Part shown: piece after piece, positions 1 to 32,803 of the stretch | Position numbering within the stretch: position 1 is the first letter of the stretch | How the letters are laid out: every line of letters begins with the position of its first letter | Program-made: the position numbers and the translations under genes | The notes under the pieces: generated by a model | What the model was told of the DNA's origin: nothing | Seen by the model: only the letters and a program-made list of their open reading frames with translations | Databases searched by the model: none | Source of the DNA: an uncultured bacterium | Lineage (GTDB): Bacteria > Acidobacteriota > Thermoanaerobaculia > Multivoradales > JAHZIX01 | Assembly (NCBI GenBank): GCA_965368975.1 | Contig: CBDUPA010000005.1 | Span: forward strand, 224,001-288,000 | Length of the DNA: 64,000 nucleotides | Reading direction: 5' to 3'

Positions 1-2
1 GG

Positions 3-104
3 CTGTCGCAGGCGCAGACGGGAAAGCTCGATGACGTCCGGTCGCGGGCTCAAGAGCGTCTGCAACGTCGAGGGCAGAGAAGGGTTCGATGGAAGAAGGC
101 GTAA
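3..104 (+). CDS. Probable 3' end of an upstream gene, truncated by the window edge
   Basis: Frame 3 is open from the edge (LSQAQTGKLDDVRSRAQERLQRRGQRRVRWKKA) to TAA at 102-104, 19 nt before the TIR gene ATG. Too short to identify. Confidence 0.35.
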   Translation: MSQAQTGKLDDVRSRAQERLQRRGQRRVRWKKA

Positions 105-123
105 GCTATATGAAGGGGGTTAT

Positions 124-1791: not shown

Positions 1792-3129
1792 GCGATAGGC
1801 TGGATCTCCGAGGAGGATATAGTTCCTGGCATCTTCTAGCGCTAGCCACAGAGTGTCTTCATCTCTAGGCACTAACTGCGGCCCATTCTTTATTTTGCCG
1901 CCGTGTACTTCATTTATAAAAATACAGGCAAGTGCATTGTACCGAGCCTGGAAGTGCCTCATGGCATGGCCTGCCGGAGTGCCTGCTAGTAATTCATTAA
2001 TAACATTCGCGTAGGTTGCAATTTCGCTCGACGGATGCAGAAAGCTTATCGAAGTGTCCCATAACTGGCCAAGGTGCCCAATCACTGCAAGAGCTCCCCT
2101 GGACAGCGCGGTCTTCGCAAGAGCGGACAAGAAGCCTGATTGCGCGTTTTGTTGAGCTCTCTGGAGATTGCGATAATTGCTATGTTTCGGAGTGCCTGCA
2201 CCGCACGTTGTTAGAAGGAAGAGGATTAGTCCGTGCGCCAGTTCGGTAGGTAGATCATCTGATTGCAAGCAATGATCCAGATCTAGTGGCCAAGACATCC
2301 CGGGCCAGTCTTGGCATACAAAATCTCCTTGATGGGAGAACTGCTCGGGACGATCGATTGGAAAAGTAACACCATGGCCTGCAAGCAGGGCGATGTCGAG
2401 ACGTTCTCTCAGGGCAGCGATTAGGTTTTTCTTCGTGGCTGCATGACCGAAAAGCTTGACTATATTGCAGTCAACATCTACTCGACTTAGCTGATCTAGA
2501 ATGGGTGGAAAGAAATCATTATGGAGAACTTGGAGTGCTGGAGCTCCGTTGTGTTCGGCTGCGCAGAATAGTGTTTGGGCCCGGGTTCGTTCTTGCTGAT
2601 CTGAGACTGCCTTGAGAGCGTACTGGCGATAAGACTCAGCGTGATCGAAGTGAAGTCGACCTACAGCATAGGTAGCGGATAATTCTTGTTGTACGCTGAA
2701 TGATATCTCCTCTGGAGATCCTACAATCAAGATATAGTATGGCAACTTGAGAGGGTCTAGTGATCCTGCTCCGCACCCTAATCGATGAAGGAACTGGAAA
2801 GTTGAAGACTCTTGGAGTCCATCCTGAAAGGCGAGCTCTTTGTATAGATTGCCTGCTTCATCTTCTCTGCGATGCCTGAGAGGAGCCAGGGCTCTATATA
2901 TATCACTATCGGTTTCCTTTGGGAAGACTATGCACCAGCCGCTATCCTTGACCGTTGAGAGGTCTATGGGTTTAAGATGAGCTGTGGTTAGCCGGGGTGA
3001 ACTGGCAGCTTCTCGGGGTGATCGAAGGAGTCCTGTGTTCTCAGAAGCCCCTGGTTGGAGCGTGGCTCCAGAAGAGAAGTCAATCCCTATGGTTAGGGGC
3101 TCAGCCATCGTTTTGTGAAAAATTGTCAT
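1720..3129 (-). CDS. Stand-alone peptidase C25-like (caspase-fold) protein, paralogue of the facing gene's C-terminal domain
   Basis: GWCIVFP, PYYILIVGSP, YAVGRLHF, AGHG, TTCGAGTP, AVIGH and DARNYILLGDPAYRL align block-for-block with ORF 124-1791. The start may be the second Met at 3108 (MAEPLTIGID). Confidence 0.8.
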   Translation of the reverse strand: MTIFHKTMAEPLTIGIDFSSGATLQPGASENTGLLRSPREAASSPRLTTAHLKPIDLSTVKDSGWCIVFPKETDSDIYRALAPLRHRREDEAGNLYKELAFQDGLQESSTFQFLHRLGCGAGSLDPLKLPYYILIVGSPEEISFSVQQELSATYAVGRLHFDHAESYRQYALKAVSDQQERTRAQTLFCAAEHNGAPALQVLHNDFFPPILDQLSRVDVDCNIVKLFGHAATKKNLIAALRERLDIALLAGHGVTFPIDRPEQFSHQGDFVCQDWPGMSWPLDLDHCLQSDDLPTELAHGLILFLLTTCGAGTPKHSNYRNLQRAQQNAQSGFLSALAKTALSRGALAVIGHLGQLWDTSISFLHPSSEIATYANVINELLAGTPAGHAMRHFQARYNALACIFINEVHGGKIKNGPQLVPRDEDTLWLALEDARNYILLGDPAYRLPHQSCRWITQENESTCISVNVP

Positions 3130-3741
3130 CGTCTCGGGTTCTCGGCGAGGTGCTGTTTCTTCTTACAAACTTCCTGAGTGTTAGCAGGTCGAATCATGTG
3201 GGATCTTACATCATGCTGACCTCACAAGTGAGGAAAGTTGGCCGAGCCCATGAACCTGGGTGGAACCTGAATTGTGAAGAGGTTGAACTGTATGCATCCT
3301 GCTCCGCGGTTCCAAGCTCGCGTCTGGAGTTGGCGGCGTCACGAGTTGGAGATTCTGCGTCGCGTTTAAGGGTGTCCGATTTGTTAGTGCCGTAGAGGAG
3401 TTCTTGCTAGCATTATTCATGTTTGTCTGCAATTAGTTTCTTGAGATTGGATGTGGCTAAAGGGGATGCTCTGTCAAGAGTGTGATTAGGGCGATGTCCG
3501 TGTCTGCCGGCCGGAGAATATGACATGGTTCGACGGGGTGTGGCTATGGGGGCACGGAGAAGGTTAGCGGGAAACGCCGCTCGACCATCAGGAAGCCAAA
3601 CTTTCGGCGAGACCTGCCGCGGTGGAGCGGCTCTTGGAATCCATTCAAGACTCCAGCTTGCTGCAAAGATCCTCTCGCTGCGTCCTGAAAGCAGCCTACC
3701 CGGGGCTCGACGAGATGAGGTTACCGGGCTGACTTCCCGCC

Positions 3742-4527
3742 CTACGACGACGCCGACGCGTAAGCTCGCAATCCCCGGCGCCAGAACCAGAGCGTGAAGA
3801 GCGAGAAGGCCACGACGATGGCGAGGGCGTGCAGCAGCGTCCCGAGGGTCAGGCCGTCGAACAGGACGTGTGCCGGGATCGAGCCGAAGAAGGCCAGGGG
3901 TAGCACGGTGATCATGGCGATGCGTAGCCAGCTGCTGTAGATCTGGTGCGGCCGCTCGGCGAGGTCGCTGAGGCGCCAGGAGACTTCGTCCAGGCCGCGG
4001 CTGCTGTGCAGCCAGAAGACCGGGATGATGAAGATCATGCGGATCAGGTACTCGACGATGACACCGATCCCCAGGAAGCCGAAGTAGGTCATGATCGAGA
4101 CGGTGCCGAGCGGGTCCGGGTAGCGGCTCAGGGCCCAGGTCACCAGGCTTCCAGCCATCAGCATGTTGACGAACGAGTTGGCGGCGAAGTCGCGCAGGCT
4201 GAGCATGAACAGGGAACTCACCGGCCGCACCAGGTAGTAGTCCAGATCGCCGCGGTTGATGAAGATGGGCAGCCACCAGAGGTTGTTCGAGAACACCGCC
4301 ATGATTACGGCGTCGACCAGCAGCAGGCCGCAGATGAAGATGTAGACCTGGTCCAGCGTCCAGCCACCGAGGGCCGAGGTGTGCTGGTAGAGGATGGTGA
4401 AGAAGGCGAGGCTGATGCCGTAGTAGGCGAGATCCATGAAGATGCGGAAGAAGAAATCCATGCGGAATTCCAGGGCTCGGCTGAAGGAGAAGCGCAGGAA
4501 GCCGAGGTAGAGGTAGAAGTAACGCAT
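3742..4527 (-). CDS. ABC-2 family permease (DUF990/ABC2_membrane_6-like)
   Basis: Multi-TM protein with GGW, INRGDLDYYLVRPVS and P..IY..W motifs. Start taken at MRYFYL (4527), 4 nt from the upstream stop. Confidence 0.85.
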   Translation of the reverse strand: MRYFYLYLGFLRFSFSRALEFRMDFFFRIFMDLAYYGISLAFFTILYQHTSALGGWTLDQVYIFICGLLLVDAVIMAVFSNNLWWLPIFINRGDLDYYLVRPVSSLFMLSLRDFAANSFVNMLMAGSLVTWALSRYPDPLGTVSIMTYFGFLGIGVIVEYLIRMIFIIPVFWLHSSRGLDEVSWRLSDLAERPHQIYSSWLRIAMITVLPLAFFGSIPAHVLFDGLTLGTLLHALAIVVAFSLFTLWFWRRGLRAYASASS

Positions 4528-20273: not shown

Positions 20274-21539
20274 TTGAGCAGAAAGGTCATTGAGACGCGT
20301 CGGGTTGCCGTCACTGGTATCGGTCTGGTTTCCGCCCTCGGGGTGGGGACCGAGATCAACTGGCGGTACCTGCGCGAGGGTAAGAGCGGCGCCGCCCGGA
20401 TCGACCGCTTCGACCCCTCGGAGTTCACCTCACAAATCGCTGCCCAGGTTACCGATTTCGATCCGCTGGACTACCTGCCGAAGAAGGAGGTCAAGAAGAC
20501 CGACTCTTTCACGCAGTATGCCCTAGCGGCTTCGACCTTCGCCATTGAGGACAGCGGCCTGGTGATCGATGGCAGCAACGACGAACGCGTCGGTGTCATC
20601 ATCGGCTCCGGTATCGGCGGTTTGCCGCTGATCGAGGCGACGCACGAGGTGTACATGGAGCGAGGGCCGAGTCGGATCTCGCCCTTCTTCATTCCGGCGA
20701 TGATCTCCAACTTGGCGGCCGGCCAGGTGTCGATCCGCTTCGGGGCCAAAGGCCCGAACACGACGCCGTGCACCGCCTGTACCACCGGCTTGCACGCTGT
20801 CGGAGATGCCTTCCGGCAGATTCAGCTCGGCTATGCCGACGCCATGATCGCTGGCGGTGCCGAGGGGCAGATCACGCCTCTCGGCGTCGGTGGCTTCTGT
20901 GCGATGAAAGCCCTTACCACGCGCAACGACGAGCCGGCAAAGGCGTCGCGGCCGTGGGACAAAGATCGGGACGGTTTCTTGGTTGGCGAAGGTTCCGGCA
21001 TCTTGGTCTTGGAAGCTCTGGACCAAGCGCAGGCGCGCGGGGCCACCATCTACGCCGAGGTCGTCGGCTACGGCATGAGCGCCGATGCCTACCACATCTC
21101 GGCACCACATCCGGACGGCGATGGCGCCGCCCGCGTCATGGCGGCCGCGCTCAAGGACGCCGAACTGCCGCCCGAGAGCATCGGCTACGTCAACGCCCAC
21201 GGTACCTCGACTCCTCTAGGTGACCTCTCCGAAGTGCGGGCCGTGCGGCGAGTGTTCGGTGAGCATGCCGAGCGATTGGCGGTGTCCTCGACCAAGAGTT
21301 GCACGGGCCATATGTTGGGTGCAGCCGGCGGCTTCGAAGCCGGGGTGCTGGCGCTGGCGTTGCACGATCAGACCCTGCCGCCGACCATCAACCTGGACGA
21401 ACCCGGCGAAGAATGTGACTTGGATTTCGTACCCAACACCGCGCGTGTGGTGGAGGGTTTGGAATATGCCTTGACCAACAGCTTCGGTTTCGGCGGCACC
21501 AACGGTGCGCTGATTCTGAGGCGCTGGTCGGGCGCGTAA
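20274..21539 (+). CDS. fabF: Beta-ketoacyl-ACP synthase II
   Basis: GSGIGG, TACTTG (Cys), NAHGTST, GHMLGAAG, NSFGFGGTN. Confidence 0.96.
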   Translation: MSRKVIETRRVAVTGIGLVSALGVGTEINWRYLREGKSGAARIDRFDPSEFTSQIAAQVTDFDPLDYLPKKEVKKTDSFTQYALAASTFAIEDSGLVIDGSNDERVGVIIGSGIGGLPLIEATHEVYMERGPSRISPFFIPAMISNLAAGQVSIRFGAKGPNTTPCTACTTGLHAVGDAFRQIQLGYADAMIAGGAEGQITPLGVGGFCAMKALTTRNDEPAKASRPWDKDRDGFLVGEGSGILVLEALDQAQARGATIYAEVVGYGMSADAYHISAPHPDGDGAARVMAAALKDAELPPESIGYVNAHGTSTPLGDLSEVRAVRRVFGEHAERLAVSSTKSCTGHMLGAAGGFEAGVLALALHDQTLPPTINLDEPGEECDLDFVPNTARVVEGLEYALTNSFGFGGTNGALILRRWSGA

Positions 21540-21579
21540 GCCGGTAACGGCTCGGTAGGGGCGTCGCTTCTGGCGCCTC
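21539..21579 (+). repeat. GTAA-loop hairpin followed by a GTAG-type REP-like palindrome
   Basis: agccg-gtaa-cggct (21539-52), then gtag-gggcgtc-gcttct-ggcgcctc. Confidence 0.45.
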
Positions 21580-21610
21580 ACTCACCGTGCTCCGGTGAAG
21601 CAGTATCCCG

Positions 21611-23485
21611 ATGAATCGTCGGGGTACCGATTGCATGCGACGGTCTCCGTACCACTTCGAGCCCGCGGAACACCTGCCGCAACTGACGGCAGTGATCCGC
21701 GAGCTGGAGGCGCTGGAGGACGTGGCGCCTCGGGATCTGGACCGCATCCAGCGCCGTCATCCCAAGCGAGATGGCCGGGTGTTTTCCAAGAGCGAGATCA
21801 TCCGCGGCTACCGCTACTTGCAGCGCCAGCGAGGTCTCGACCCGGACGCCGGTCGTCTCGTCGAGCGCCTGCAGATGAAACCCGTGCGGACGCACAGCGG
21901 GGTGGCGCCGGTGACCGTGCTGACCAAACCGTATCCGTGTCCCGGGCGATGCATTTTCTGTCCCAACGACGTGCGCATGCCCAAGAGCTACCTGTCCAAC
22001 GAACCCGGAGCCCAACGAGCCGCCAGCCATGGATTCGACCCCTACCTACAGACCTACTTCCGGCTACGCAGCCTGCGCAACATGGGGCACCGCGTGGACA
22101 AGGTCGAGCTGATCGTGCTGGGTGGTACCTGGTCCTTCTATCCGGAGCCCTACCAAATCTGGTTCCTCAAGCGCTGCTTCGACGCTCTCAACGATTTCGC
22201 CGACCGTGACGGTCCGCGGGACGATCCCGACGCCCTGGCGCCGGACGACGCCGTGCCCTTCGACCAGCTCGACGAGATCGGCGTCGCCGCGCACGCCGAC
22301 CGTCTGGAGCGAAGCTACAACCAGGTGGTCAGCGAGCACCTGCAGCAGCATCTCGACGGTCGCCTGCTGCCTGACGACGAGCACGCCGACTGGAGCGATC
22401 TCGAGTCCGTCCAGCGCGTCAACGAGGGACAGAAGGTGCGCTGCGTCGGCCTGGTGCTCGAGACGCGGCCCGACCACATCAGCGAAGACGAAGTCATCCG
22501 GGTGCGCCGCCTGGGCGCCACCAAGGTCCAGATCGGTATCCAGAGCCTGAACGATGTCGTGCTCGCAGCCAATCGCCGAGGCCACGACGTCGCCGCCACG
22601 CGCCGCGCGTTCCGGCTGCTGCGCGCCATGGGCTTCAAGTTGCACGCGCACTGGATGCCCAACCTCTATGGCTCCAACCCGCAAGCCGACCTCGACGACT
22701 TCGAGCGCCTGTTCGGCGACCCTGACTTCTGTCCCGACGAACTCAAGCTCTACCCCTGCTCCCTGATCGAGAGCGCCGAGCTGATGGTGCAGTATCGGGC
22801 TGGTGCGTGGCGCCCGTATAGCGACGACGAACTGCTCGGTGTGGTCACGGGCTGTCTCGAGCGGACGCCGCCCTGGTGCCGGCTGACCCGCGTCATTCGC
22901 GACATCCCGTCGCAGGACATCGTGGTCGGCAACAAGCAGACCAACTTCCGCGAAGTTGCCGAGCGCGCCCTGGCCGAGCGGGGAGGCGGCAGTCGCGACA
23001 TCCGCAGCCGCGAGATTCGCCGCCGCCAGGTGAAAGACGACGAGCTGCACCTCGACGCGATCGAGTACACCAGCGCCGTTGGTCGCGAAGTCTTCCTACA
23101 GTTCATCACCGACGCCGACGAGATCGCCGGTTTCCTGCGGCTGTCGCTGCCTTCCGAGCCCGTCTTCCTGGACGAGATCGCCGACAGCGCGATGGTGCGT
23201 GAAGTGCACGTCTACGGTGCGCTGGCGGGCTTCCAGAGTGCGGGCGAGACGTCCCCATCTCACCCCAAGACCCAAGATCCCAGAACCCAGCACCCCGAGA
23301 TTCAACACCCCAAGACCCAGCATCGGGGCCTCGGTCGCCGTCTGCTCGACGAGGCCGCCCGCCGGGCCGTCGAGGCCGGCTTTCACGACCTCGCCGTCAT
23401 TTCCTCTGTCGGCACCCGTGACTACTACCGCCGCCAGGGCTTCACCGACGGTGAGCTCTACCAACACCTTTCGCTCGTCCACTGA
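21611..23485 (+). CDS. elp3: Elp3-family radical SAM/KAT tRNA U34 carboxymethyltransferase
   Basis: KPVRTHSGVAPV, CPGRCIFCP, PKSY..EPG, GGTW, ETRPD, GIQS, HWMPNL, KLYP, RVIRDIP, N.RE, IRSRE, REVHVYG, QHRGLG, ISSVGTRDYY. Start 21611 or 21635. Confidence 0.92.
   Translation: MNRRGTDCMRRSPYHFEPAEHLPQLTAVIRELEALEDVAPRDLDRIQRRHPKRDGRVFSKSEIIRGYRYLQRQRGLDPDAGRLVERLQMKPVRTHSGVAPVTVLTKPYPCPGRCIFCPNDVRMPKSYLSNEPGAQRAASHGFDPYLQTYFRLRSLRNMGHRVDKVELIVLGGTWSFYPEPYQIWFLKRCFDALNDFADRDGPRDDPDALAPDDAVPFDQLDEIGVAAHADRLERSYNQVVSEHLQQHLDGRLLPDDEHADWSDLESVQRVNEGQKVRCVGLVLETRPDHISEDEVIRVRRLGATKVQIGIQSLNDVVLAANRRGHDVAATRRAFRLLRAMGFKLHAHWMPNLYGSNPQADLDDFERLFGDPDFCPDELKLYPCSLIESAELMVQYRAGAWRPYSDDELLGVVTGCLERTPPWCRLTRVIRDIPSQDIVVGNKQTNFREVAERALAERGGGSRDIRSREIRRRQVKDDELHLDAIEYTSAVGREVFLQFITDADEIAGFLRLSLPSEPVFLDEIADSAMVREVHVYGALAGFQSAGETSPSHPKTQDPRTQHPEIQHPKTQHRGLGRRLLDEAARRAVEAGFHDLAVISSVGTRDYYRRQGFTDGELYQHLSLVH
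23261..23320 (+). repeat. 15-bp x4 degenerate tandem repeat inside the Elp3 KAT domain
   Basis: caccccaagacccaa/gatcccagaacccag/caccccgagattcaa/caccccaagacccag = HPKTQ DPRTQ HPEIQ HPKTQ. Confidence 0.85.
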
Positions 23486-23494
23486 TCGCGCATT

Positions 23495-24442
23495 ATGAAA
23501 CGAACTCTCTTCTTGCTCACGCCGATCTTCCTGATCGTCATTGGCGTCTTCTACTACACGGCCTACCGCAAGACGCGCTCCCAGACCATCGTCTACCAGG
23601 CCCCCGGCGCCGACACTGTGCGCGTCGAGAAGGACCTGATCTACCTGCCGGTGGACGACGAGCGTCCGAATGGAGACACCGCTCGGGCCTTCGACCTGTA
23701 CCTGCCGCCGGAGCCGTCCGCGCAGCCGCTGCCGGTCGTCGTCCTGGTGCATCCGGACGGTCCCGCCAGCGTCATCGACAACTTCAAAGACTGGGGCCAG
23801 ATGACCTCGTGGGCCCGCACCTTCGCCGCCTCCGGCCTGGCTGCCGTCACCTTCAATCGGAGTTCCACCGAACTGCTGAAGGACATCGAAGTTGTCGCCG
23901 CCGAGGTCGAGGCGATGCTGGCCTACCTCCAGCAGCACGGCGAACGCCTCGGCATCGATCCACAGCGCATCGGCATCTGGGCCAACTCCTCGGCGCCGCC
24001 GTTCGCCCTGCGTGCCGTCCTGCGTGATCGTCCCGCAAACGTGCGCGCCATCGCCATCTACTACGGGGCCGTCAGTTTCGACGCCTTCCCGGCCGTGCAC
24101 ACGCGCGACGCCGAGCCGAGCCTGTGGCACGAATTCGATCTCGCCCGTCATCTCGGTGCATCGGGCCACCTGGACCCACCATCGACCGACGCTGAGAGCG
24201 GCCCCGTCCAAGATTTGCCCGCCATGCTCGTGGCGATCGCCGGCAAGGACACCCCCGAGCTGAACACCGCCCTCACCAACTTCATCGATGCCGCACGCGC
24301 CCACGGCGGCGACGTCACCGTACTCGAACATCCCGAAGGCGACCACGCCTTCGACCTGGGTAGCGATACCGACACGACGCGCAACATCGTGCGTCAGACC
24401 ATCGAGTTCTTCCAACATCACCTCACGGAGGCCCGAGGATGA
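23495..24442 (+). CDS. Membrane-anchored alpha/beta hydrolase (dienelactone-hydrolase-like)
   Basis: N-terminal TM, FDLYLP, VVLVH, GIDPQRIGIWANSSA (atypical nucleophile elbow), GKD, GDHAFD. Confidence 0.75.
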   Translation: MKRTLFLLTPIFLIVIGVFYYTAYRKTRSQTIVYQAPGADTVRVEKDLIYLPVDDERPNGDTARAFDLYLPPEPSAQPLPVVVLVHPDGPASVIDNFKDWGQMTSWARTFAASGLAAVTFNRSSTELLKDIEVVAAEVEAMLAYLQQHGERLGIDPQRIGIWANSSAPPFALRAVLRDRPANVRAIAIYYGAVSFDAFPAVHTRDAEPSLWHEFDLARHLGASGHLDPPSTDAESGPVQDLPAMLVAIAGKDTPELNTALTNFIDAARAHGGDVTVLEHPEGDHAFDLGSDTDTTRNIVRQTIEFFQHHLTEARG

Positions 24443-27285
24443 GCTTCCAGACCCCGACTTTCGAGCCCGGAGACACCGTCTCCCACCGCCACAACCCAGA
24501 CCTCGGCCCCGGCCGCATCGTCAGCCTCGATCCGCGGCGCATCCAGGTCGAGTTCCCCGACGCGCGCAAGGTTCTGTTCATCTCCGCCGCCGCCGATGCC
24601 CTCGAAAGGCTGGAGCTACACGCCGGCGGTAAGGCGCGCTATCGCGTCACCGGCAAGAAAGTCGGCTTGGTCAAGCCGAGTGACGACGGCGAGCACTGGC
24701 ACCTGACTAACGGTGAGACCGTTCTCGCCTCCGAGTTGTTGCCGCTGCCGCAGCCGCCGTCACCGTTGGAGCGTCTGGCCTCCGGCAAGGTCGACGCCTT
24801 CGAAGACTTCCGCAACCGCCTCGACGCCCTGCGTCTGCTGCGCCTGCGCGAAGCTCAGGGCCTCGGCTCCTTCCTCGGTGGCCGTATCCGTCTCTTCCCG
24901 CACCAGCTCTACGTCGCCGAGAAAGCCTGCCACAGCGATCCCGTGCGCTGGCTGCTGGCCGACGAGGTCGGCCTCGGCAAGACCGTCGAAGCCTGCCTCA
25001 TTCTGCAGCGCCTGGTGCACACGGGGCGTGCCGGTAAGATCCTGGTGCTGGCGCCCGAAACCCTCACCGTGCAGTGGCTCGGCGAGCTGTGGCGCAAACA
25101 CCACCAGGTCTTCGCCCTGCTCGACCACAAGCGCCTCGCCGACGTCCACCGCGACTTCGGTCGTCGTCTCAACCCCTTCGAGGTCTACACCCGCGCCATC
25201 CTCAGCTTCGAGCTGCTACAAGAGCGGCCCAGCCTGGCACGCCAAGCCGTCGAGGCCGGCATCGACCTGCTCGTGGTCGACGAAGCCCACCACCTCAAGC
25301 GTCCGCCCAAGCACAGCGGCAACCTGCTCTATCGCGCTGTCCAGCGCATTACCAAGCAGGGCAATCACGTGCTGCTGCTCTCCGCCACACCGCTGGAAGA
25401 AGACGCCCACGGCTTCTTCCGCCTGCTGCAGATGCTGCGACCGGAAGAGTTCGCCGAGTCCTCCAGCTTCGAGAAGCGTCTGCGGGCACGGCGCCCCCTG
25501 CCGCCTTGCACCAGCGCTACCCGCCGCCGCGACATCGGCGGCCTGCCGCCGCGCAAGGCCTTCCCGGTCAACCTGCGCAAAGTCGACTGGGCCCCCTGGT
25601 CGCGCATCGAACTCGAACTCCGCCGCCTGACGGCACGCAGTCCCACGCAGCGCAAGCGCCGCCTCGAGCAGCTCGAGCGCTCCCTGTCCTCTCCGGCGTC
25701 CCTGCTCAACCTGTTGGACATCGAAGAGATCAAGGAACCGGTCGATCCGAAGGCCGAGGACGGCAAGAAGAACGGGGACAGCAAGAAGGTCGAAACGCCC
25801 GCGGAGGCGCCCGTCGCAGCAGCCGCACCGGCACCGCCGACCAAGCGCATCGGCAGACCCAAGGGCACGGCGATCGACGAAGAAGAGTACCCCGGCGAAG
25901 GCAAACCCCCGAGCCGTCGTGGCCGGGCCGCCCGCGGCCGTGGCCGCTGGCGCCGCCGCCGGGGCCGTGGAGAGGAGGGGGGCGTCAATCCGGTCGAGAT
26001 CGAGACCAAGGTCGCCGAACTGGCGCGTGACCTGCTCGACGACAACGACGCCGCCGATCCCGAAAAGGATCCCCGCCTCGCCTGGCTGCTCGAACAGCTG
26101 CCGCAGTGGCGCAAAGACGGCGACAAGGTCCTGCTTTTCGTCGCCTGGAAAGACAGCATGGACGCGCTCAAGAAGGCGATCGAGTGGCACGGCCAGACCC
26201 GCGTCAGCCTGTTTCACGAAGAGCTTTCCCCTGAGCGCCGCGACCTCGAAGTCGCGCAGTTCCGCCTGCCCGAAGGCCCCACCTTGCTGCTCTCCACCGA
26301 GTGTGGCGGCGAGGGTCGAAACTTCGAGTTCTGCCGCCGCCTGGTGCTCTACGATTTGCCCCTCGATCCCGCCAAAGTCGAGCAGCGCATCGGCCGTCTC
26401 GATCGCATCGGCCGTAAAGTGCCCACCGAGATCGTCTACTTCCGGCCACCCCGGGGCCTCGGCCGCGTCGCCGTCGAGTTGTACGAGAAACTCGGCGTCT
26501 TCCGCGAACCGCAAAGTGGCATGGTGCGCGAACTCGATCGCATCGCCGAGCGTCTGCGCGACATGGCTCTGGCCAAGCGTCCCCCCGAGCCCGACGCCTT
26601 TGACGATCTCCTCGACTCCGCACGAAAGAGCCGCAACCGCATCCGCCGTGCCGCCTACCACGAGCTGCACCGCGCTCCCTACCGCCGCCGCATGGCCAAG
26701 GACATCCTCCAGCGCGTGCCACCCGACCTCGACGAACTCAACGAAGACGTCGTCCTGCGCGCCGCCGCCCGCTTCGGCTTCAAGATCGAGGAACGTCGCG
26801 GCCCCCGCGCCAACTACATCGAACTAGGCTCCGAAGCCCTGGTCGACCGCCTCCCCGGCGTCAAACCCGGCTCCCGCTTCCTCGGCACCTTCGACCGCGA
26901 ATTCGCCGTCGAAGACGAAGGCATGGACTACTTCGCCTCCGGCCACCCCCTGGTCGAGGGTGTCCTCGCCGAACTCGAAGACGGTCCCCGCGGCCGCTCC
27001 GCGGTCTTCCGTCTGGACGGTGACGAAGAAACCTTCGGTCTGCTCGCCCTCTACAAGAAAGGCCCCGAGTTCGAGGCCGTCGCGGTCGATAGGGAAGGCA
27101 ACAAGCGTCCCGACCTGGTGCAGATCATCCTGGAAGGCGAACAGAAGGTCCATCGCGTCGATGCCCCCAAGTGGACCGGCCAAGCCGGCTGGAAGCCAAC
27201 CCTGGAGCGCATCGCCAAGTACCTGCCGCACGATCGTCCACAAGCGGTAGCGGCGTTCCGCGTCAAGAAGGTGACCGGGGACTGA
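24439..27285 (+). CDS. SNF2-family helicase/ATPase, RapA/HepA-like
   Basis: FPHQL, LLADEVGLGKT, QW..EL, VVDEAH, LLLSATP, GGEGRNF, EQRIGRLDRIG, GTFDRE.A, GHPLV. Confidence 0.88.
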   Translation: MSFQTPTFEPGDTVSHRHNPDLGPGRIVSLDPRRIQVEFPDARKVLFISAAADALERLELHAGGKARYRVTGKKVGLVKPSDDGEHWHLTNGETVLASELLPLPQPPSPLERLASGKVDAFEDFRNRLDALRLLRLREAQGLGSFLGGRIRLFPHQLYVAEKACHSDPVRWLLADEVGLGKTVEACLILQRLVHTGRAGKILVLAPETLTVQWLGELWRKHHQVFALLDHKRLADVHRDFGRRLNPFEVYTRAILSFELLQERPSLARQAVEAGIDLLVVDEAHHLKRPPKHSGNLLYRAVQRITKQGNHVLLLSATPLEEDAHGFFRLLQMLRPEEFAESSSFEKRLRARRPLPPCTSATRRRDIGGLPPRKAFPVNLRKVDWAPWSRIELELRRLTARSPTQRKRRLEQLERSLSSPASLLNLLDIEEIKEPVDPKAEDGKKNGDSKKVETPAEAPVAAAAPAPPTKRIGRPKGTAIDEEEYPGEGKPPSRRGRAARGRGRWRRRRGRGEEGGVNPVEIETKVAELARDLLDDNDAADPEKDPRLAWLLEQLPQWRKDGDKVLLFVAWKDSMDALKKAIEWHGQTRVSLFHEELSPERRDLEVAQFRLPEGPTLLLSTECGGEGRNFEFCRRLVLYDLPLDPAKVEQRIGRLDRIGRKVPTEIVYFRPPRGLGRVAVELYEKLGVFREPQSGMVRELDRIAERLRDMALAKRPPEPDAFDDLLDSARKSRNRIRRAAYHELHRAPYRRRMAKDILQRVPPDLDELNEDVVLRAAARFGFKIEERRGPRANYIELGSEALVDRLPGVKPGSRFLGTFDREFAVEDEGMDYFASGHPLVEGVLAELEDGPRGRSAVFRLDGDEETFGLLALYKKGPEFEAVAVDREGNKRPDLVQIILEGEQKVHRVDAPKWTGQAGWKPTLERIAKYLPHDRPQAVAAFRVKKVTGD

Positions 27286-27295
27286 GAGCGTCCTG

Positions 27296-28081
27296 GTGGA
27301 CGAAAAAACGAGGCGCGCCCTCAACGCCATCAACCGCCACTTCTACCAGCACCACGCTGAGCGCTTCAGCGAGACTCGCTCGAAGCCTTGGCAAGGTTGG
27401 GATTACGTCGTGCGTCGCTTGCTGGAACGCTCGGTAGGGAAACCGGCGGAGCCTTTGCGCGTGCTGGACGTGGGCTGTGGCAACGGGCGGTTCGGGGAGC
27501 TACTGCACCAGAAGTTCCCGCGGGCCGTCGAGTACCTCGGCATTGACTCCAGCGCGCCGCTCCTGGAGCACGCGCGCGCGCGACTGCAGGGGCGAGGGGA
27601 CTGGGATGTCGAATTCGTCCAGCACGACTTCGTGGAAGCTGGGCTGGCAGAAGTGGTGGGCGAGCGATTCGACCTGGTGGTGCTGTTTGGCGTGCTGCAC
27701 CACATACCGGGTGCCGAGGTGCGACAGCGCTTGGTCGGAGAGTTATTGGGGAGCCTGGCGCCAGGTGGGGAGGTGGTGCTGTCGGTGTGGCGCTTTGCGG
27801 AGGACCCGCGGTATGAGCGTCGCGTGGTGAGCTGGGAGGAGCACAACGCGTGGGTGCGGGAGAGCGGGGTGGGCGTCGAGATGCTGGTGGATGCTGGGGA
27901 GGTCGAGGAGGGGGATGTGTTGCTGCGGTGGGGTGGGAGGGAGTCGAGTTGGTGGCGGTATTGTCATGCGGTGGGGGAGGGGGAGTTGGGGGAGCTGGTG
28001 AAGCGGGGTGGTGGGATTGTGGTGGAAGCGGGGGTGGGGGATGGGGGGAATGGGTACTGGTGGGTCAAGTTGGAGAGTTGA
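27296..28081 (+). CDS. Class I SAM methyltransferase, Trm9/ALKBH8-like
   Basis: FY..HAERFSETRSKPW, LDVGCGNGR, GIDSS..LL, FD....GVLHH, L.PGG...SVW, RYCH...EGEL: the motif order of Trm9-type tRNA carboxyl methyltransferases. Confidence 0.8.
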   Translation: MDEKTRRALNAINRHFYQHHAERFSETRSKPWQGWDYVVRRLLERSVGKPAEPLRVLDVGCGNGRFGELLHQKFPRAVEYLGIDSSAPLLEHARARLQGRGDWDVEFVQHDFVEAGLAEVVGERFDLVVLFGVLHHIPGAEVRQRLVGELLGSLAPGGEVVLSVWRFAEDPRYERRVVSWEEHNAWVRESGVGVEMLVDAGEVEEGDVLLRWGGRESSWWRYCHAVGEGELGELVKRGGGIVVEAGVGDGGNGYWWVKLES

Positions 28082-28120
28082 TAGCGGTCAGAAGAGCGGT
28101 GCGAGGTCGGCTGGGGTGCC

Positions 28121-28149
28121 TTGACACCTCGGAGGTAGATGACAATACT
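28121..28149 (+). promoter_or_regulatory. Sigma70-like promoter of vapBC with a spacer palindrome (possible operator)
   Basis: TTGACA (28121-26), 17 nt, AATACT (28144-49); acctc-g-gaggt at 28126-36. Confidence 0.45.
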
Positions 28150-28200
28150 GGTCTTACCCGCTTCTTACTGAGGGCTCAGCCCCTGACAGAGGACTCAACC

Positions 28201-28464
28201 ATGTCGAGCATACCCGCCACCACCCGACTCTCCACCAAAGGTCAACTCATCATCCCTAAAGACATCCGTGACCGCCACGGCTGGCGTGCCGGAAGTGCGT
28301 TGATCGTCGAAGACCGGGGCACAGAAGTCGTATTGCGGTCGCCTCTGGAGATCCCGGAAACGACCTTGGAAGACCTGGTGGGCTGTACCGGCTATTCCGG
28401 TCCAAGGCGCTCACTCGAAGAGATGGAAGAGGCGATCGCGAGGGGGGCGAGGGAGCGGAGATGA
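28201..28464 (+). CDS. vapB: AbrB/MazE/SpoVT-family antitoxin
   Basis: TRLSTKGQLIIPKDIRDRHGW..G; GAGGA before ATG 28201; ATGA overlap with the toxin. Confidence 0.88.
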   Translation: MSSIPATTRLSTKGQLIIPKDIRDRHGWRAGSALIVEDRGTEVVLRSPLEIPETTLEDLVGCTGYSGPRRSLEEMEEAIARGARERR

Positions 28465-28868
28465 TCGGGCTCGACACGAATGTCCTAGTGAGAATCGTGA
28501 CGCGTGATGATCCCGAACAGCTTCCTGCCGCTATGGCAGTCATGGAAGCTGCCCGGCTTCATGTCACCAAAACGGTGCTGCAAGAGCTGGAGTGGGTGCT
28601 GCGCTATAGCTACCGCCTCGGACGCGAAGAGATCAGCCGGGCCTTGGTGGGTTTGCTGGGACTACGGCGCCTGGAAGTGGAAGATCGGGAAGCAGTCGTC
28701 AGGGCATACCAGGGATACCAGGTCGGAATGGATTGGGCAGATGCACTCCACTTGGCTTCGAGACCAGCAGGTGGTTCGTTGAGCCGCTTTGCCACGTTCG
28801 ACCGAAAACTGGCCAAGACGGCGGAAGGTGTCGAGGCAATGCCAGAGGTCGAGCTGCTCGGAGCCTGA
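28461..28868 (+). CDS. vapC: PIN-domain VapC toxin
   Basis: IGLDTNVLVR, ELEWVL, DWADALH, TFDRKL (acidic PIN tetrad). Confidence 0.92.
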   Translation: MIGLDTNVLVRIVTRDDPEQLPAAMAVMEAARLHVTKTVLQELEWVLRYSYRLGREEISRALVGLLGLRRLEVEDREAVVRAYQGYQVGMDWADALHLASRPAGGSLSRFATFDRKLAKTAEGVEAMPEVELLGA

Positions 28869-28884: not shown

Positions 28885-30315
28885 TCATCCCGGCAGCTTT
28901 GACGCGTCCACATCCTCCGGCACCGCATCCCCTCGACCCTGCAACCACTTGCGGAACGTATCCTTGTCCAGCGCCTTCTCTAGCCCATCCAGGGGATCCG
29001 CCGTCCCGGCTTCGACGAGCTTCTTCAGGCTGTCATCCATCGCCACCATGCCGACCTTGCGGCCGCCGGAGATGACGTCGGGGATCTGGTGGGTCTTGCC
29101 TTCGCGGATGGCGGAGGAGAGGGCGGGGTTGCGCAGCAATACCTCGACGGCGGCGACGCGGCCTCCGCCTTTTCTGGGCAGGAGCTGCTGGGCGACGATG
29201 CCTTGGATGACGCTGGAGAGCACACCGCGGATCTCGTCGATGCGGCTGGCGGGGAAGACGCTGACGATACGGTCGACGGTCTTGGAGGCGGAGTTGGTGT
29301 GCAGGGTGCCGAAGACGAGGAGGCCGGTGTCGGCGGCGTTGAGGGCGATGCCGATGGTTTCGACGTCGCGCATTTCGCCGACCAGGACGGCGTCGGGGTC
29401 TTCACGTAGGGCCATTCTCAGGGCGTGGGAGAAGCTGGGAGCGTGAGCGCCGATCTCGCGGTGGCTGATGACGCTCTGCTGGTTCTGGTGCACGAACTCG
29501 ATGGGATCCTCGATGGTGATGAAGTGCATGGGACGCTTCTGGTTCATCTCGTGGATCATGGCGGCCAGGGTGGTGCTCTTGCCGGAGCCGGTGGGGCCGG
29601 TGACCAGGACCAAGCCTGAGTTCAGGCGGGTGAGTCTGCGCAGGACGCGCGGGAGCTTGAGATCATCGAGGGTGAGAATCTTGCTCGGGATGATGCGGAA
29701 GACGGCGCCCATGCCGCGCTCTTGCTGGAAGAGGTTGACGCGGAACCGGGCGAGGCCGGGGACCTCGTAGGCAAAGTCCATGTCGCCGGTGGCGCGGTAG
29801 CGCGACCACAGTTCCGGCGGCGTGACGGGGCGCATCAGGTTTTCGAAGTCGCGGTCGTCGAGCACACGGTAGCGGATGGGCTCGATACGACCGGAGAGGC
29901 GCAGCATGGGAGGACGGCCGGCGCTCAGGTGCAGATCGGAGGCGCCGCGGTCTTGCATCAGCTTGAGGAAGCGGTCGATGCGGTTGGTGCGGTGCTCGGT
30001 CTCGACGCTCACGGCGGCTGGCTGGGCTGCTTGTTGAGCTGGCGCCGCGGGTTGAGCTGGTGCCGCGGGCTGGGCCGGTGCTGGCTGAGCTGCGGCTGGC
30101 TGGGGTGCGGGCGAGACCGGTGGGGGCGTCGGCGCCGCGGGAGCGGGCGAAGCAGGGGATTGAGTCGCCGGTGCCTGGGGAGCTGCCGGTGCCTGGGGAG
30201 CTGCTGGGACCTGCGGCACTGCTGGTGCTGGGGGAGCCGGTTGGGTTGCAGCTGCGGGGGCCGTGTCGTCGGGTGGCAGGTCGATGACTCTTGGCGTCTG
30301 TGGGGTGTCGCTCAT
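28885..30315 (-). CDS. pilT: PilT/PilU-family ATPase with a Pro/Ala/Gln-rich N-terminal extension
   Basis: GASDLHL, RFRVN, GPTGSGKSTT, TIEDPIE, ALREDPD, VGEMRD, GTLHT. Confidence 0.88.
   Translation of the reverse strand: MSDTPQTPRVIDLPPDDTAPAAATQPAPPAPAVPQVPAAPQAPAAPQAPATQSPASPAPAAPTPPPVSPAPQPAAAQPAPAQPAAPAQPAAPAQQAAQPAAVSVETEHRTNRIDRFLKLMQDRGASDLHLSAGRPPMLRLSGRIEPIRYRVLDDRDFENLMRPVTPPELWSRYRATGDMDFAYEVPGLARFRVNLFQQERGMGAVFRIIPSKILTLDDLKLPRVLRRLTRLNSGLVLVTGPTGSGKSTTLAAMIHEMNQKRPMHFITIEDPIEFVHQNQQSVISHREIGAHAPSFSHALRMALREDPDAVLVGEMRDVETIGIALNAADTGLLVFGTLHTNSASKTVDRIVSVFPASRIDEIRGVLSSVIQGIVAQQLLPRKGGGRVAAVEVLLRNPALSSAIREGKTHQIPDVISGGRKVGMVAMDDSLKKLVEAGTADPLDGLEKALDKDTFRKWLQGRGDAVPEDVDASKLPG
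30033..30238. repeat. 18-bp tandem repeats encoding the PAAPAQ/AAPQAP linker
   Basis: gttgagctggYgccgcgg x2 (30033-68); gccggtgcctggggagct x2 plus two degenerate copies (30167-238). Confidence 0.85.
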
Positions 30316-30325
30316 ATCTGGATGC

Positions 30326-32803
30326 TCATGCGTTGGGTTCCTGCTGGCTGAGGAAGCCGGGATCGCACATGGGGGCGAAGGTGGCGGGCTTGTCGGCAGC
30401 CTTCCAGGCGGTCTCGGGGGAAATCAAGTCGGCTTCGACAAGGTCCATGAGGCTCTGGTCGAGCATGCGCATGCCGATCTGGCGACCGATCTGCATCAGG
30501 CCGGGAAGCTGGAAGGTCTCGTCGCGGCGGATCGTCGAGCCGACGCTCATGGTGCCCTTGAGGACCTCGAAGGCGGCGACGCGGCCGTGGCCGCTCTTGT
30601 GCTGGAGCAGACGCTGGCAGACGATGTACTTGAGCGATTCGGACAGTGCCATGCGCACCTGGGCCTTCTCATCGGCCGGGAAGCTGTCGACCAGGCGATC
30701 GATGGTCTGGACGGCATTGGTGGTGTGCAGGGTGCCGATCATGAGGTGACCGGTCTCGGCGGCTTCGAGCGCCATGCGGATGGTGTCGGTGTCGCGCAGC
30801 TCGCCCACCACGATGATGTCCGGGTCTTCACGCAGGGCGGCGCGCAGGCCGCTGGCGAAGGCCTTGGTATCGCGGCCCACTTGACGCTGGTTGATCAAGG
30901 CCTGCTTGGGTGGATGGACGAACTCGATCGGGTCTTCCAGGCTGATCAGGTGCGACGGCTTGGTCTCGTTGATCAGGTTGATCAGCGCGGTGAGGGTGGT
31001 GCTCTTGCCGCAGCCGGAAGGGCCGGAGATGACGATGACGCCCTGGTGGAAGTCGAGCAGTTCCTTGAGCTGTTCGGGCAGGCCGAGTTCGGCGAAGCTG
31101 GGCGGTCGGTTGGGGATGACGCGGAAGGAGGCGCACAGGCCGAGACGTTGCTCGTAGGCGTTGGCGCGGTAGCGGCCGACTTCGGGGATGGCGTGGCAGA
31201 AGTCGAGGCCCTTCTCTTCCTCCAGGGTCGCCCACTGCTGGTCGTCGAGGGCAGCGCGCAGGTAGGCTGCGCTCTGTTCTGCGGTGATCGGCTTGAGGTG
31301 GTCGAGACGGTAGAGGACGCCGTCGCGGCGTACGACGGGCGGCTCGCCGACGCTGATGTGCAGGTCGGAGGCTTCCATGTCGCGGATTTGCACGAGCAGC
31401 CGGTCGAGCGGGTTGGAGAGCTTGCTAGTGTCGACCTTCGGGCCGCCTTCGCCTTCCTGGTGTGCGACCTGGAACAGCTCGTTCATGCCGCGTAGCACGT
31501 CGTTGGCGCGCAGGCGTACGTCGGCGTCGGGGTCGCGGTCGCGGACTTGCTTGAGGATGCTGAGCAGACGCCGGTCGTTGAACTTGGAGAACGCCTGCAG
31601 CACCTCCATGCGTACTTCCGGTCGCGGGTCGCGCAGCAGTTGGCTCAGCGGCTGCAATGACGAGACGGCGCCGATGTGGGCCAGCGCGTCGACGGCGGCC
31701 CAGCGGGTGTCTTCATCTTGCAGCATGCGCACCAGATGCGGCACGGCGCGCTCGTCCTTGAGGTTGCCGAGCACTTCACAAGCGGTGACGCGCAGCCACC
31801 AGTCCTTGTCTGCCAGCAGCTTGCAGAAGGGCTCGACGAGACGTTTGTCGTTGAAGCCTTCGGCCAGCATCAGCGCGGCGGTACGGATCTCGGGTGTCGG
31901 ATGGCCGAACAGCTTGACGGCGGCGCGCAGCACCGGCTCGCCGCCTTCGCGCAGGGCCTCGTGGATGCGCAGGCGTAGCCAGCCGGCCATCTTGTGGCCA
32001 AGGTTCAGGATCTCGGTAACGGCCTGCTCCGCACTGCTGGAGTCGATCAGGATCTTGATCGCGCTGCGCCGGGTCTGCTCGGTGCCGCGGGGCAGCAGGT
32101 CGAGCAGCGAGCGGCGCAGGACTTTCGGGTTGGACTCGAGTTCGCGCCGCAGGTAGCTCTCGGCGATGCGTCGGCTGGCGTCGTCGCCGTCGGCCAGACG
32201 GTCGAGCATCAACTCGAGGACGCGCGAGTCGGGAGACGTGGACAGCGCCTTGAGCGCGACCTGGGCCAGCTGCAGGTCTTTGTCGCGGCCCAGCTTGAGC
32301 AGCATGTCGAGACGTGCGTCGGGCGGGCTGGTCTCGAGGATCTCGCTCAGCGCCTTGTGACGCATCGCCGCCGGTGCCTCGAACACGGCGCGATCGAGGT
32401 AGGACGCCCGGATACTGCCGGGCAGCGCCAGGGCGACTTCCCAGGCGGTGCGCCGCGCTTGCAGGTCGTCGCTGGTCAGCAACTGCTCCATGGCGCCATG
32501 GACGGCCGCAGCAGGCAAATGCTCGACCAAGGGCAGCAAGCCCTCGCGCATTTTGGCCGACTTGGTGCCCAGCTCGGTGACGAAAGCTTTGACGCCCTCG
32601 GCGTCGGCGCCGCTGACGAATAGCTGGGTGCCGCTCTGGCGTACCGCGCTGTCCTGGTGCACGACCAGCGGCACTAGCTCTGCGCTTTGCTTGGGCGGGC
32701 TCTGCTGCAGCTGGGCCAGCAGGGCGTCGCGCTCTGCTGGGTCGCCCCAGCCGCTGGCGGCGAGGGTCTGGACGGGCGTCTTCTTGCTGCCGAAGAGGGC
32801 CAT
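30326..32803 (-). CDS. HEAT-repeat / PilT-family ATPase fusion
   Basis: ~450 aa of HEAT-like repeats (LLADKDWWLRVTACEVLG, LLRDPRPEVR, DPDADVR), then ASDLHI, GPSGCGKSTT, EDPIE, ALREDPD, GELRD, GTLHT. Confidence 0.85.
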   Translation of the reverse strand: MALFGSKKTPVQTLAASGWGDPAERDALLAQLQQSPPKQSAELVPLVVHQDSAVRQSGTQLFVSGADAEGVKAFVTELGTKSAKMREGLLPLVEHLPAAAVHGAMEQLLTSDDLQARRTAWEVALALPGSIRASYLDRAVFEAPAAMRHKALSEILETSPPDARLDMLLKLGRDKDLQLAQVALKALSTSPDSRVLELMLDRLADGDDASRRIAESYLRRELESNPKVLRRSLLDLLPRGTEQTRRSAIKILIDSSSAEQAVTEILNLGHKMAGWLRLRIHEALREGGEPVLRAAVKLFGHPTPEIRTAALMLAEGFNDKRLVEPFCKLLADKDWWLRVTACEVLGNLKDERAVPHLVRMLQDEDTRWAAVDALAHIGAVSSLQPLSQLLRDPRPEVRMEVLQAFSKFNDRRLLSILKQVRDRDPDADVRLRANDVLRGMNELFQVAHQEGEGGPKVDTSKLSNPLDRLLVQIRDMEASDLHISVGEPPVVRRDGVLYRLDHLKPITAEQSAAYLRAALDDQQWATLEEEKGLDFCHAIPEVGRYRANAYEQRLGLCASFRVIPNRPPSFAELGLPEQLKELLDFHQGVIVISGPSGCGKSTTLTALINLINETKPSHLISLEDPIEFVHPPKQALINQRQVGRDTKAFASGLRAALREDPDIIVVGELRDTDTIRMALEAAETGHLMIGTLHTTNAVQTIDRLVDSFPADEKAQVRMALSESLKYIVCQRLLQHKSGHGRVAAFEVLKGTMSVGSTIRRDETFQLPGLMQIGRQIGMRMLDQSLMDLVEADLISPETAWKAADKPATFAPMCDPGFLSQQEPNA

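Follow-up and report, generated by a model that had tools for sequence, protein, structure and literature searches.

Elp3 of archaea and eukaryotes is known to form 5-carboxymethyluridine (cm5U) at the wobble position (U34) of tRNA, and eukaryotic thiolation proceeds via the Ncs6/Urm1 route. In Gram-negative bacteria, CmoA/CmoB/CmoM take uridine-5-oxyacetic acid (cmo5U) to its methyl ester, mcmo5U. We analyzed a stretch of 64,000 nucleotides (nt) from an uncultured bacterium of the Acidobacteriota (GenBank contig CBDUPA010000005.1, positions 224,001 to 288,000 of the forward strand; hereafter the window), in which a string of four genes begins with elp3 and ends with a gene for a class I methyltransferase dependent on S-adenosylmethionine (SAM). 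Coordinates are positions in the window, and the genome to which it belongs is called G000. Our comparisons support the assignment of this methyltransferase (MT) to the Trm9/ALKBH8 family, as a predicted cm5U34 carboxyl methyltransferase within a large bacterial family. They further suggest a eukaryote-type U34 modification in bacteria where it had not previously been reported, with the locus adding a bacterial member to a pathway already known.

The Cmo system likewise performs a SAM-dependent methyl esterification of a wobble-uridine carboxyl in bacteria, but on an oxyacetic acid side chain and in other tRNAs. The MnmE-MnmG system (with MnmC or MnmM), which yields 5-carboxymethylaminomethyluridine (cmnm5U) or 5-methylaminomethyluridine (mnm5U), shares with the window's system the target (C5 of U34), the tRNAs and the cooperation with MnmA for the 2-thio group (s2). 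Its enzymes and chemistry are nevertheless unrelated, and it was mutually exclusive with the Elp3/MT pair in the genomes tested. With the eukaryotic systems, in which Elp3 is followed by Trm9-Trm112 or ALKBH8-TRMT112, the locus shares both catalytic families and their order, the expected tRNAs and the active-site residues of Trm9. In contrast to those systems, Elp1, 2, 4, 5 and 6 would not be expected here, the equivalent of Tyr243 of yeast Trm9 (ScY243; Sc marks yeast numbering) is a Cys, MT lacks the AlkB and RRM domains of ALKBH8, and thiolation would come from bacterial MnmA. Lone Elp3 has been described for prokaryotes and, more recently than in the sources cited below, attributed to "numerous bacteria" (PMC13315578, in the passages covered). 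The archaeal systems of Haloferax volcanii and Sulfolobus solfataricus also combine a lone Elp3 with a short Trm9 (and Trm112) encoded by clustered genes, a clustering reported for Sulfolobus (PMC6144793). The bacterial family differs from them in forming its own group with a Cys in its RYCH motif, whereas the haloarchaeal reference has RFYH but a Pro at ScH115.

Another bacterial lone Elp3, that of Dehalococcoides mccartyi (DmcElp3), has been called "a rare example" (PMC6367351), and 5l7j is a close PDB relative of the window Elp3. The N-terminus of DmcElp3 is much shorter (PMC7663514), whereas the window protein has 624 residues, about 80 of them before the matched core. The passages covered of these sources mention no partner methyltransferase for DmcElp3. 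Bacteria have been described as modifying U34 via MnmE/MnmG and as having no detectable relatives of the Trm112-dependent methyltransferases (PMC5372719, passages covered), and bacterial Elp3 as a rarity of Dehalococcoides (PMC7663514, PMC6367351) that occurs in "one specific" clade, with no evidence for cm5U-type derivatives (xcm5U; PMC7663514, passages covered). Neither a bacterial Trm9 nor bacterial 5-methoxycarbonylmethyluridine (mcm5U) was described in the open-access PMC and bioRxiv texts searched, and the phrase "bacterial Trm9" occurred 0 times, although a passing mention elsewhere is possible.

The methyltransferase and its Elp3 neighbor

The four open reading frames (ORFs) of the string are:

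21611-23485, plus strand: ORF 1, Elp3; 624 aa with an N-terminal extension of ~80 residues; matches in TIGR01211, Pfam and PDB
23495-24442, plus strand: ORF 2, alpha/beta-hydrolase, esterase-like; 315 aa with a hydrophobic N-terminal segment; weak Pfam matches
24439-27285, plus strand: ORF 3, RapA-like SNF2 helicase; 948 aa with an Arg/Gly-rich insert
27296-28081, plus strand: ORF 4, Trm9/ALKBH8-family class I SAM methyltransferase (MT); 261 aa, GTG start

An earlier, sequence-only reading of the window had described this as a co-directional string with gaps of 9, -4 (a 4-nt overlap) and 10 nt, which the ORF coordinates bear out. The motifs that it quoted for MT (FSETRSKPW, DVGCGNG, VLHH, PGG..W and RYCH..EGEL, the last two in full PGGEVVLSVW and RYCHAVGEGEL) all lie in the translation of 27296-28081, and the Trm9/ALKBH8 motifs that it named match real eukaryotic Trm9 sequences. 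The GTG start of MT fits the N-termini of 26 homologues.

Pfam and NCBIfam matches of MT were to generic class I families only (Methyltransf_25, _12, _11 and related models), with no Trm9-specific model among them. In a single-sequence search of the PDB, the best match was 5cm2_Z (4e-9), the Trm9 chain of the Yarrowia Trm9-Trm112 complex, and the alignment ran from TRxKPW near the N-terminus to RYxH..EGE near the C-terminus. A profile of 27 MT-family members again placed 5cm2_Z first (2.1e-14, 56.3 bits; next chain 45.5), and hhalign matched the MT family to ALKBH8 over residues 13-238 with 98.9% probability (E 3.9e-17). When long proteins were searched with the family profile, query coverage was 92% and 90% for ALKBH8, 92% for a bacterial fusion protein (P0121) and 69% for a sister fusion (P0122); the remaining long methyltransferases matched the Rossmann core alone, at 24-56% of the query. 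In the reverse direction, all ten references (the methyltransferase domains of two ALKBH8 proteins, seven Trm9 proteins of eukaryotes and a haloarchaeal homologue, P0246, at 4e-13) had MT as their best match in the 7.1-Mb genome. The sequence comparisons thus uphold the likeness to Trm9/ALKBH8 that had been proposed, with Trm9 as the best solved relative and reciprocal best matches throughout.

Structure and phylogeny gave a more divided answer, in that the Foldseek E-values favor Trm9 while the structural Z-scores and the trees do not discriminate. The AlphaFold model of MT (mean predicted local distance difference test score, pLDDT, 93.2) has the Rossmann-type order of strands and helices, and Foldseek ranked 5cm2_Z on top by E-value (3.5e-14), with others close behind. 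VIA-align gave Z values of 19-21 for all compared structures, with METTL6 the highest. In a first tree, whose outgroup consisted of the only two detectable paralogues, branches of 5-9 changes per column were obtained and one paralogue fell inside the MT family. A second tree grouped eukaryotic and archaeal Trm9 together (96/71) and the bacterial MT family separately (72/92), and the two joined against four of the seven paralogues at 82/77. A single clade of MT family and Trm9 was not rejected by the approximately unbiased (AU) test (p 0.15).

The family is large, with 1,874 representatives (at 50% identity) at E<=1e-30. Annotation pipelines label most of it "class I SAM-dependent methyltransferase" and a search of the ESM Atlas gave generic methyltransferase clusters only. 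Its resemblance to Trm9 is not invisible to pipelines, since the automatic JGI annotation carries a TRM9 label on 5 of the 120 homologues listed. The two fusion proteins named above are metagenomic sequences of ~500 aa in which a Trm9-like MT is joined to a glycosyltransferase domain of the WecG/TagA type (PF03808), an unexpected combination for a tRNA enzyme.

Yeast Trm9 needs R29, D72, H116, W145, W168, R241, Y243 and N271 (PMC4678810, Table 2). We counted the conservation of the corresponding and adjacent residues over 150 representatives of the bacterial MT family:

ScY18: Y17 here; Y in 150/150; N-terminal helix
ScR29: R28 here; R in 150/150; FSxTRxxPW segment, proposed carboxylate ligand
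Motif I Asp (D-x-G-C-G-N-G): D58 here; D in 150/150
ScD72: D84 here; D in 149/150; motif II acidic residue
ScH115: H135 here; H in 150/150; His-His pair after strand 4
ScH116: H136 here; H in 145/150; essential residue of the His-His pair
ScW145: W165 here; W in 149/150
ScW168: W212 here; W in 122 and F in 27 of 150; aligns with LVPW of ALKBH8
ScR241: R221 here; R in 150/150; R-Y-Y-H strand
ScY243: C223 here; C in 149/150; second Tyr of R-Y-Y-H
ScH244: H224 here; H in 149/150

The segment with Y17 and R28 aligns with HFSxTRYKPW of eight eukaryotic references and one archaeal reference and, by hhalign, with ALKBH8, and H135/H136 align with the (V/I)IHH of the eukaryotic references. For ScN271, the proposed reader of uracil O2 and N3, an Asn column is at least 90% conserved in the family alignment, and in the cross-domain alignment the GNGYWW of MT matches the (D/G)NW of the references at this position. 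MAFFT --auto mis-gaps the unusual C-terminus of MT, and an Asn lies within 8 columns in 150/150. In these alignments the Cys of RYCH takes, throughout the family, the place of a Tyr that contributes to the activity of yeast Trm9. Yeast Y243A retains ~10% specific activity (PMC4678810, Table 2), so that ScY243 is helpful and not indispensable.

ORF 1 is an Elp3, a predicted radical-SAM and GNAT enzyme that would carboxymethylate tRNA U34, an activity expected from its family membership. The complete Elp3 reported at the start of the string is confirmed by TIGR01211 (451.6 bits against a cut-off of 350), which matches in one stretch (residues 82-617; model positions 50-517 of 522). Pfam adds Radical_SAM, Radical_SAM_C and three GNAT families, the GNAT matches lying at 566-613, and the CxxxCxxC motif is CPGRCIFC at residues 110-117 (C110/C114/C117). 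The best PDB relatives are chains of the "ELP3 family" (6iaz, 3e-94; 5l7j, 5.7e-93). Residues ~540-570 form a low-complexity insert of repeated HPKTQ-like units (SHPKTQDPRTQHPEIQHPKTQH), just before the acetyl-CoA-binding RGLGRRL of the GNAT domain.

Distribution of the Elp3/MT pair, MnmE/MnmG and Trm112

We followed MT and Elp3 through three samples of genomes. The same-order sample comprised 41 genomes including relatives, with a threshold of E<=1e-26 for MT. MT was present in 17 of the 41 and Elp3 in 18 (17 over the cut-off, plus G004, in which it is split over two contig ends), such that 17 of the 18 Elp3-bearing genomes and 0 of the 23 Elp3-less genomes had MT. The relatives G012, G022 and G040 are each a single contig and may come from isolates. 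In an evenly drawn sample of the phylum (n=151), four genomes (G000, G008, G019 and G112) carried both Elp3 and MT and the other 147 neither. The third sample came from genome contigs, in which a single-sequence scan gave no MT relatives; an alignment-based scan with one genome per species found 398, and the best 80 were kept as named loci. These 80 come from Acidobacteriota, Myxococcota, Chloroflexota, several Patescibacteria lineages, Fermentibacteria and metagenome-assembled genomes (MAGs) labeled as spirochaetes. Elp3 stood in the flanks of 55 of the 80 loci (46 of the 62 with an upstream flank of at least 2.5 kb). In 54 of these it was encoded upstream on the opposite strand, a median of 334 nt away, the total for this comparison being 55. 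Twenty of the other 25 named genomes encoded Elp3 elsewhere, for a total of 75/80. Co-occurrence and synteny with elp3 are accordingly very strong, and a lack of co-occurrence was seen in none of the three samples. Bacterial Elp3 is nearly always accompanied by a Trm9-family partner.

Synteny redrew the limits of the unit. Across the 20 kb examined in ten relatives (5 kb for G112), only the Elp3/MT pair was conserved (10/10 neighborhoods), with the two genes head to head at intergenic distances down to 14-21 nt. An esterase homologue was found neither in the flanks of the 80 named loci nor within ~8 kb of the pair in the ten relatives, and a RapA-like homologue lay a few kb from the pair in 3 of the 80 loci (L023, L025 and L086) and in 0 of the ten relatives. 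The conserved unit is a divergent two-gene Elp3/MT pair. Because only the pair is conserved in relatives, the arrangement of the window, with both genes on the same strand and two genes between them, is derived, and the esterase and helicase lie outside the system. The gene string of the sequence-only reading therefore holds in this genome and fails as a conserved unit, the esterase and helicase being specific to G000. Both were considered as members of the pathway and were ruled out by the absence of conserved linkage.

The genome of the window, 99.3% complete, was also searched for the enzymes that bacteria normally use at U34, and neither MnmE nor MnmG, whose presence had been left as a check, passed its cut-off. 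The best MnmE score was 92.8 bits against 252.6, from matches to the GTPase domain, and the best MnmG score was 32 bits against 525. MnmG was over the cut-off in 0 of the 41 same-order genomes and, at E<=1e-30, in 0 of 50 named pair-bearing genomes. In the phylum sample it was found in 124 of 151 genomes, a tally that counts G125 and G150 (flagged unpublished) as MnmG-positive rows only, and all four pair-bearing genomes were among the 27 without it. In total, none of 68 pair-bearing genomes yielded MnmG (17 of the same order, 50 named and G112 of the phylum sample). Since relatives are not independent, we attach no statistic to this exclusivity, which fits two pathways sharing one substrate. 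MnmA is present in G000 (352 bits), a CmoA was not found there (the best match, at 32 bits, is MT itself) and the single match to the MnmC domain is marginal. The genome encodes the U34 tRNAs Lys-UUU, Glu-UUC, Gln-UUG, Arg-UCU and Gly-UCC.

It had been noted that the window holds no gene for a Trm112-like activator. This is correct, and the sole PF03966 match of the genome lies on contig 31 (L001 1390-1692, minus strand; 22.5 bits against a cut-off of 22). The encoded proteins of this family have 83-101 aa and a CP...YPI..DIP signature without the four-cysteine zinc site, and they carry a strongly conserved insert of ~30 residues (YREHFRDEEPVVEQGL), which is unusual for bacteria. A genome-wide check thus finds a family gene elsewhere in G000, but one that does not track the pair. 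It occurs in 41 of 41 same-order genomes, with or without the pair, and its co-occurrence for this reason says nothing on partnership. No Trm112 fusion was seen among the MT homologues listed. A complex prediction from the MT alignment and residues 1-82 of the Trm112-family protein, run without controls, gave a score of 0.28 against a mark of 0.32 and speaks neither for nor against a partnership.

Neighboring genes and other features of the window

The four-gene string follows a yceD-plsX-fabD-fabG-acpP-fabF housekeeping cluster. A consensus scan found no plus-strand terminator-like site inside the string, and the sole promoter-like site that it found lies after the string, at 28121. The sequencing runs listed for 21400-28300 are six DNA metagenomes with shares of <=0.06, and no RNA run is among those listed. 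The esterase-like ORF (23495-24442) matches BD-FAE (29.8 bits) and Abhydrolase_3 (21.6 bits) in Pfam. The RapA-like ORF (24439-27285) matches SNF2-rel_dom, Helicase_C and RapA_C and scores 361 bits with NF003426 (RapA), under the cut-off of 576. Its N-terminus is DUF3553-like, and ~100 residues make up an Arg/Gly/Pro-rich insert.

Directly after MT, a PIN-domain ORF (28461-28868; 1.3e-12) overlaps by 4 nt an upstream frame that ends at 28464 and whose last ~90 residues begin MSSIPATTRLSTKGQLIIPKDIRDRHGW. This frame resembles an AbrB/SpoVT-type antitoxin, which with the PIN-domain ORF would form a VapBC-like pair. Two adjacent PilT/T2SSE-type ATPases follow on the minus strand (28885-32803), the second (825 aa) fused to an N-terminal HEAT-repeat region. 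A large cluster for nonribosomal peptide synthetases (NRPS) and polyketide synthases (PKS) occupies 36694-61319, with a 5,323-aa ORF, a 1,648-aa PKS module (KS-AT-KR-ACP) and a 1,158-aa NRPS module (C-A-T). Contigs 3 and 39 of the genome carry methyltransferase domains inside giant synthetases. The start of the window (1-4000) is a low-GC island (0.50-0.54 vs ~0.66 elsewhere) that resembles foreign DNA. It encodes a TIR-domain protein of 586 aa (ORF 31-1791; PF13676, 2e-13; GC at third codon positions 0.48), possibly a defense gene. An rRNA operon was considered for this island and ruled out, as Rfam gave 0 matches over the window.

Proposed pathway and its alternatives

We put the probability at roughly 0.7 that the first and last genes of the string encode two steps of an Elongator-type wobble-uridine pathway in a bacterium, with mcm5U or its 2-thio form (mcm5s2U) at U34 as the predicted product. 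In the proposed scheme, Elp3 would use acetyl-CoA and radical-SAM chemistry to place a carboxymethyl group on C5 of U34, and the Trm9-family MT would then methylate the carboxyl of cm5U with SAM to give mcm5U, a step suggested by the conserved carboxylate- and uracil-binding residues and by the genomic linkage. MnmA would add the s2 group to the tRNAs for Lys, Glu and Gln, which, given the presence of MnmA in the genome, would therefore end as mcm5s2U. The result would be a mixed pathway, with thiolation of the bacterial type and a side chain of the eukaryotic or archaeal type, and the pair would stand where MnmE, MnmG and MnmC would normally act in this lineage. The esterase and RapA-like helicase would be passengers of a local rearrangement. 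The sequence-only reading had proposed consecutive steps of a eukaryote-like wobble pathway; our computations support this proposal, with the qualifications that the unit comprises two genes and that the Cys of RYCH departs from the Tyr of known Trm9.

Several observations weigh against this pathway. ScY243 is Tyr in all nine eukaryotic and archaeal references and Cys in 149 of the 150 family members. Identity of MT to true Trm9/ALKBH8 is 23-34% with moderate E-values (1.5e-5 to 5e-15), and some of the reciprocal margins are narrow, as for Capsaspora (1e-9 vs 2e-7). A clade of MT family and Trm9 was not recovered in the tree, where three long-branch paralogues fall on the bacterial side, nor was it rejected. 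Within the order, G020 (96% complete) has Elp3 with no MT found, and 5 of the 80 named MT-bearing MAGs have no Elp3 found. According to a 2020 review, bacteria offer no direct evidence of xcm5U derivatives, and DmcElp3 is only weakly active in vitro (PMC7663514, passages covered). Finally, 23 of the 41 relatives (including G006, G007, G009, G011, G013-G018 and G021) lack Elp3, MT and MnmG together, and this led us to reject the pair as a simple replacement of MnmEG. The pair is therefore restricted to MnmG-less genomes, yet it is no universal substitute. No known route to 5-methyl-type derivatives of U34 (xm5U34) is apparent in those 23 relatives.

The main rival, which we regard as unlikely, keeps MT as a partner of Elp3 and assigns it something other than the plain conversion of cm5U to mcm5U: it might act on cm5s2U only or on another Elp3 product, or make a transient ester toward an amide-type side chain, and the family Cys at ScY243 might alter its substrate or product. 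The nearly invariant exchange of Tyr for Cys is an argument for such a variant product, and the separate group that the bacterial family forms in the tree would fit it. So would observations in yeast, where the route to 5-carbamoylmethyluridine (ncm5U) is unresolved and a trm9 mutant accumulates ncm5U (PMC3110198, passages covered). Yet yeast Y243A still works at ~10% of the wild-type rate (PMC4678810, Table 2), and the other residues proposed to bind carboxylate and uracil (R29, H116, R241, N271 and W145) are conserved. That conservation also counts against the improbable reading in which Elp3 and MT serve not tRNA U34 but another RNA or a small molecule, their eukaryotic likeness being merely ancestral. 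Such a role would agree with the weak activity of DmcElp3 and with the review's statement that no xcm5U derivative has been shown in bacteria (PMC7663514), and the 23 relatives without Elp3, MT and MnmG imply that xm5U34 may be dispensable in this order. Against it, tRNA is needed to trigger acetyl-CoA hydrolysis by DmcElp3 (PMC6367351), and the pair never occurs with MnmG in the 68 pair-bearing genomes.

The comparative data speak against two further explanations. The short spacing of the four genes and the absence of an internal plus-strand terminator-like site suggest co-transcription in this genome, and a RapA-like gene does lie near the pair in 3 of 80 loci; one could hence picture a single functional operon with the esterase and helicase in the tRNA pathway, the esterase for example removing the methyl ester. 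We consider this very improbable, as neither gene is found within ~8 kb of the pair in ten relatives, the esterase is absent from all 80 named loci, and its hydrophobic, membrane-anchor-like start is unfit for a cytoplasmic tRNA enzyme. That MT is an unrelated class I enzyme standing near elp3 by chance can hardly be credited when the two genes occur together with few or no exceptions in three independent samples, their divergent arrangement is met again in several phyla, and Trm9-specific residues outside the Rossmann core are conserved.

Beyond this locus, we lean slightly toward a wider reading of the mcm5U pathway, in which MnmE/MnmG-less bacteria of several phyla (Acidobacteriota, Myxococcota, Chloroflexota, several Patescibacteria lineages and others) would make mcm5U or mcm5s2U by way of a head-to-head Elp3/Trm9 pair and MnmA. 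The invariant-Cys branch of Trm9 would then be either the first identified client of bacterial Trm112 or independent of Trm112, and the Elongator-type pathway would be a widespread bacterial alternative to MnmEG instead of an archaeal/eukaryotic invention with a single bacterial exception. The pair yields a concrete prediction, namely mcm5U or mcm5s2U in bacterial tRNA, and offers small two-gene systems for the enzymology of Elp3 and Trm9. MT is a candidate client for bacterial Trm112, and the pair would add to what is known of how the Elongator pathway arose.

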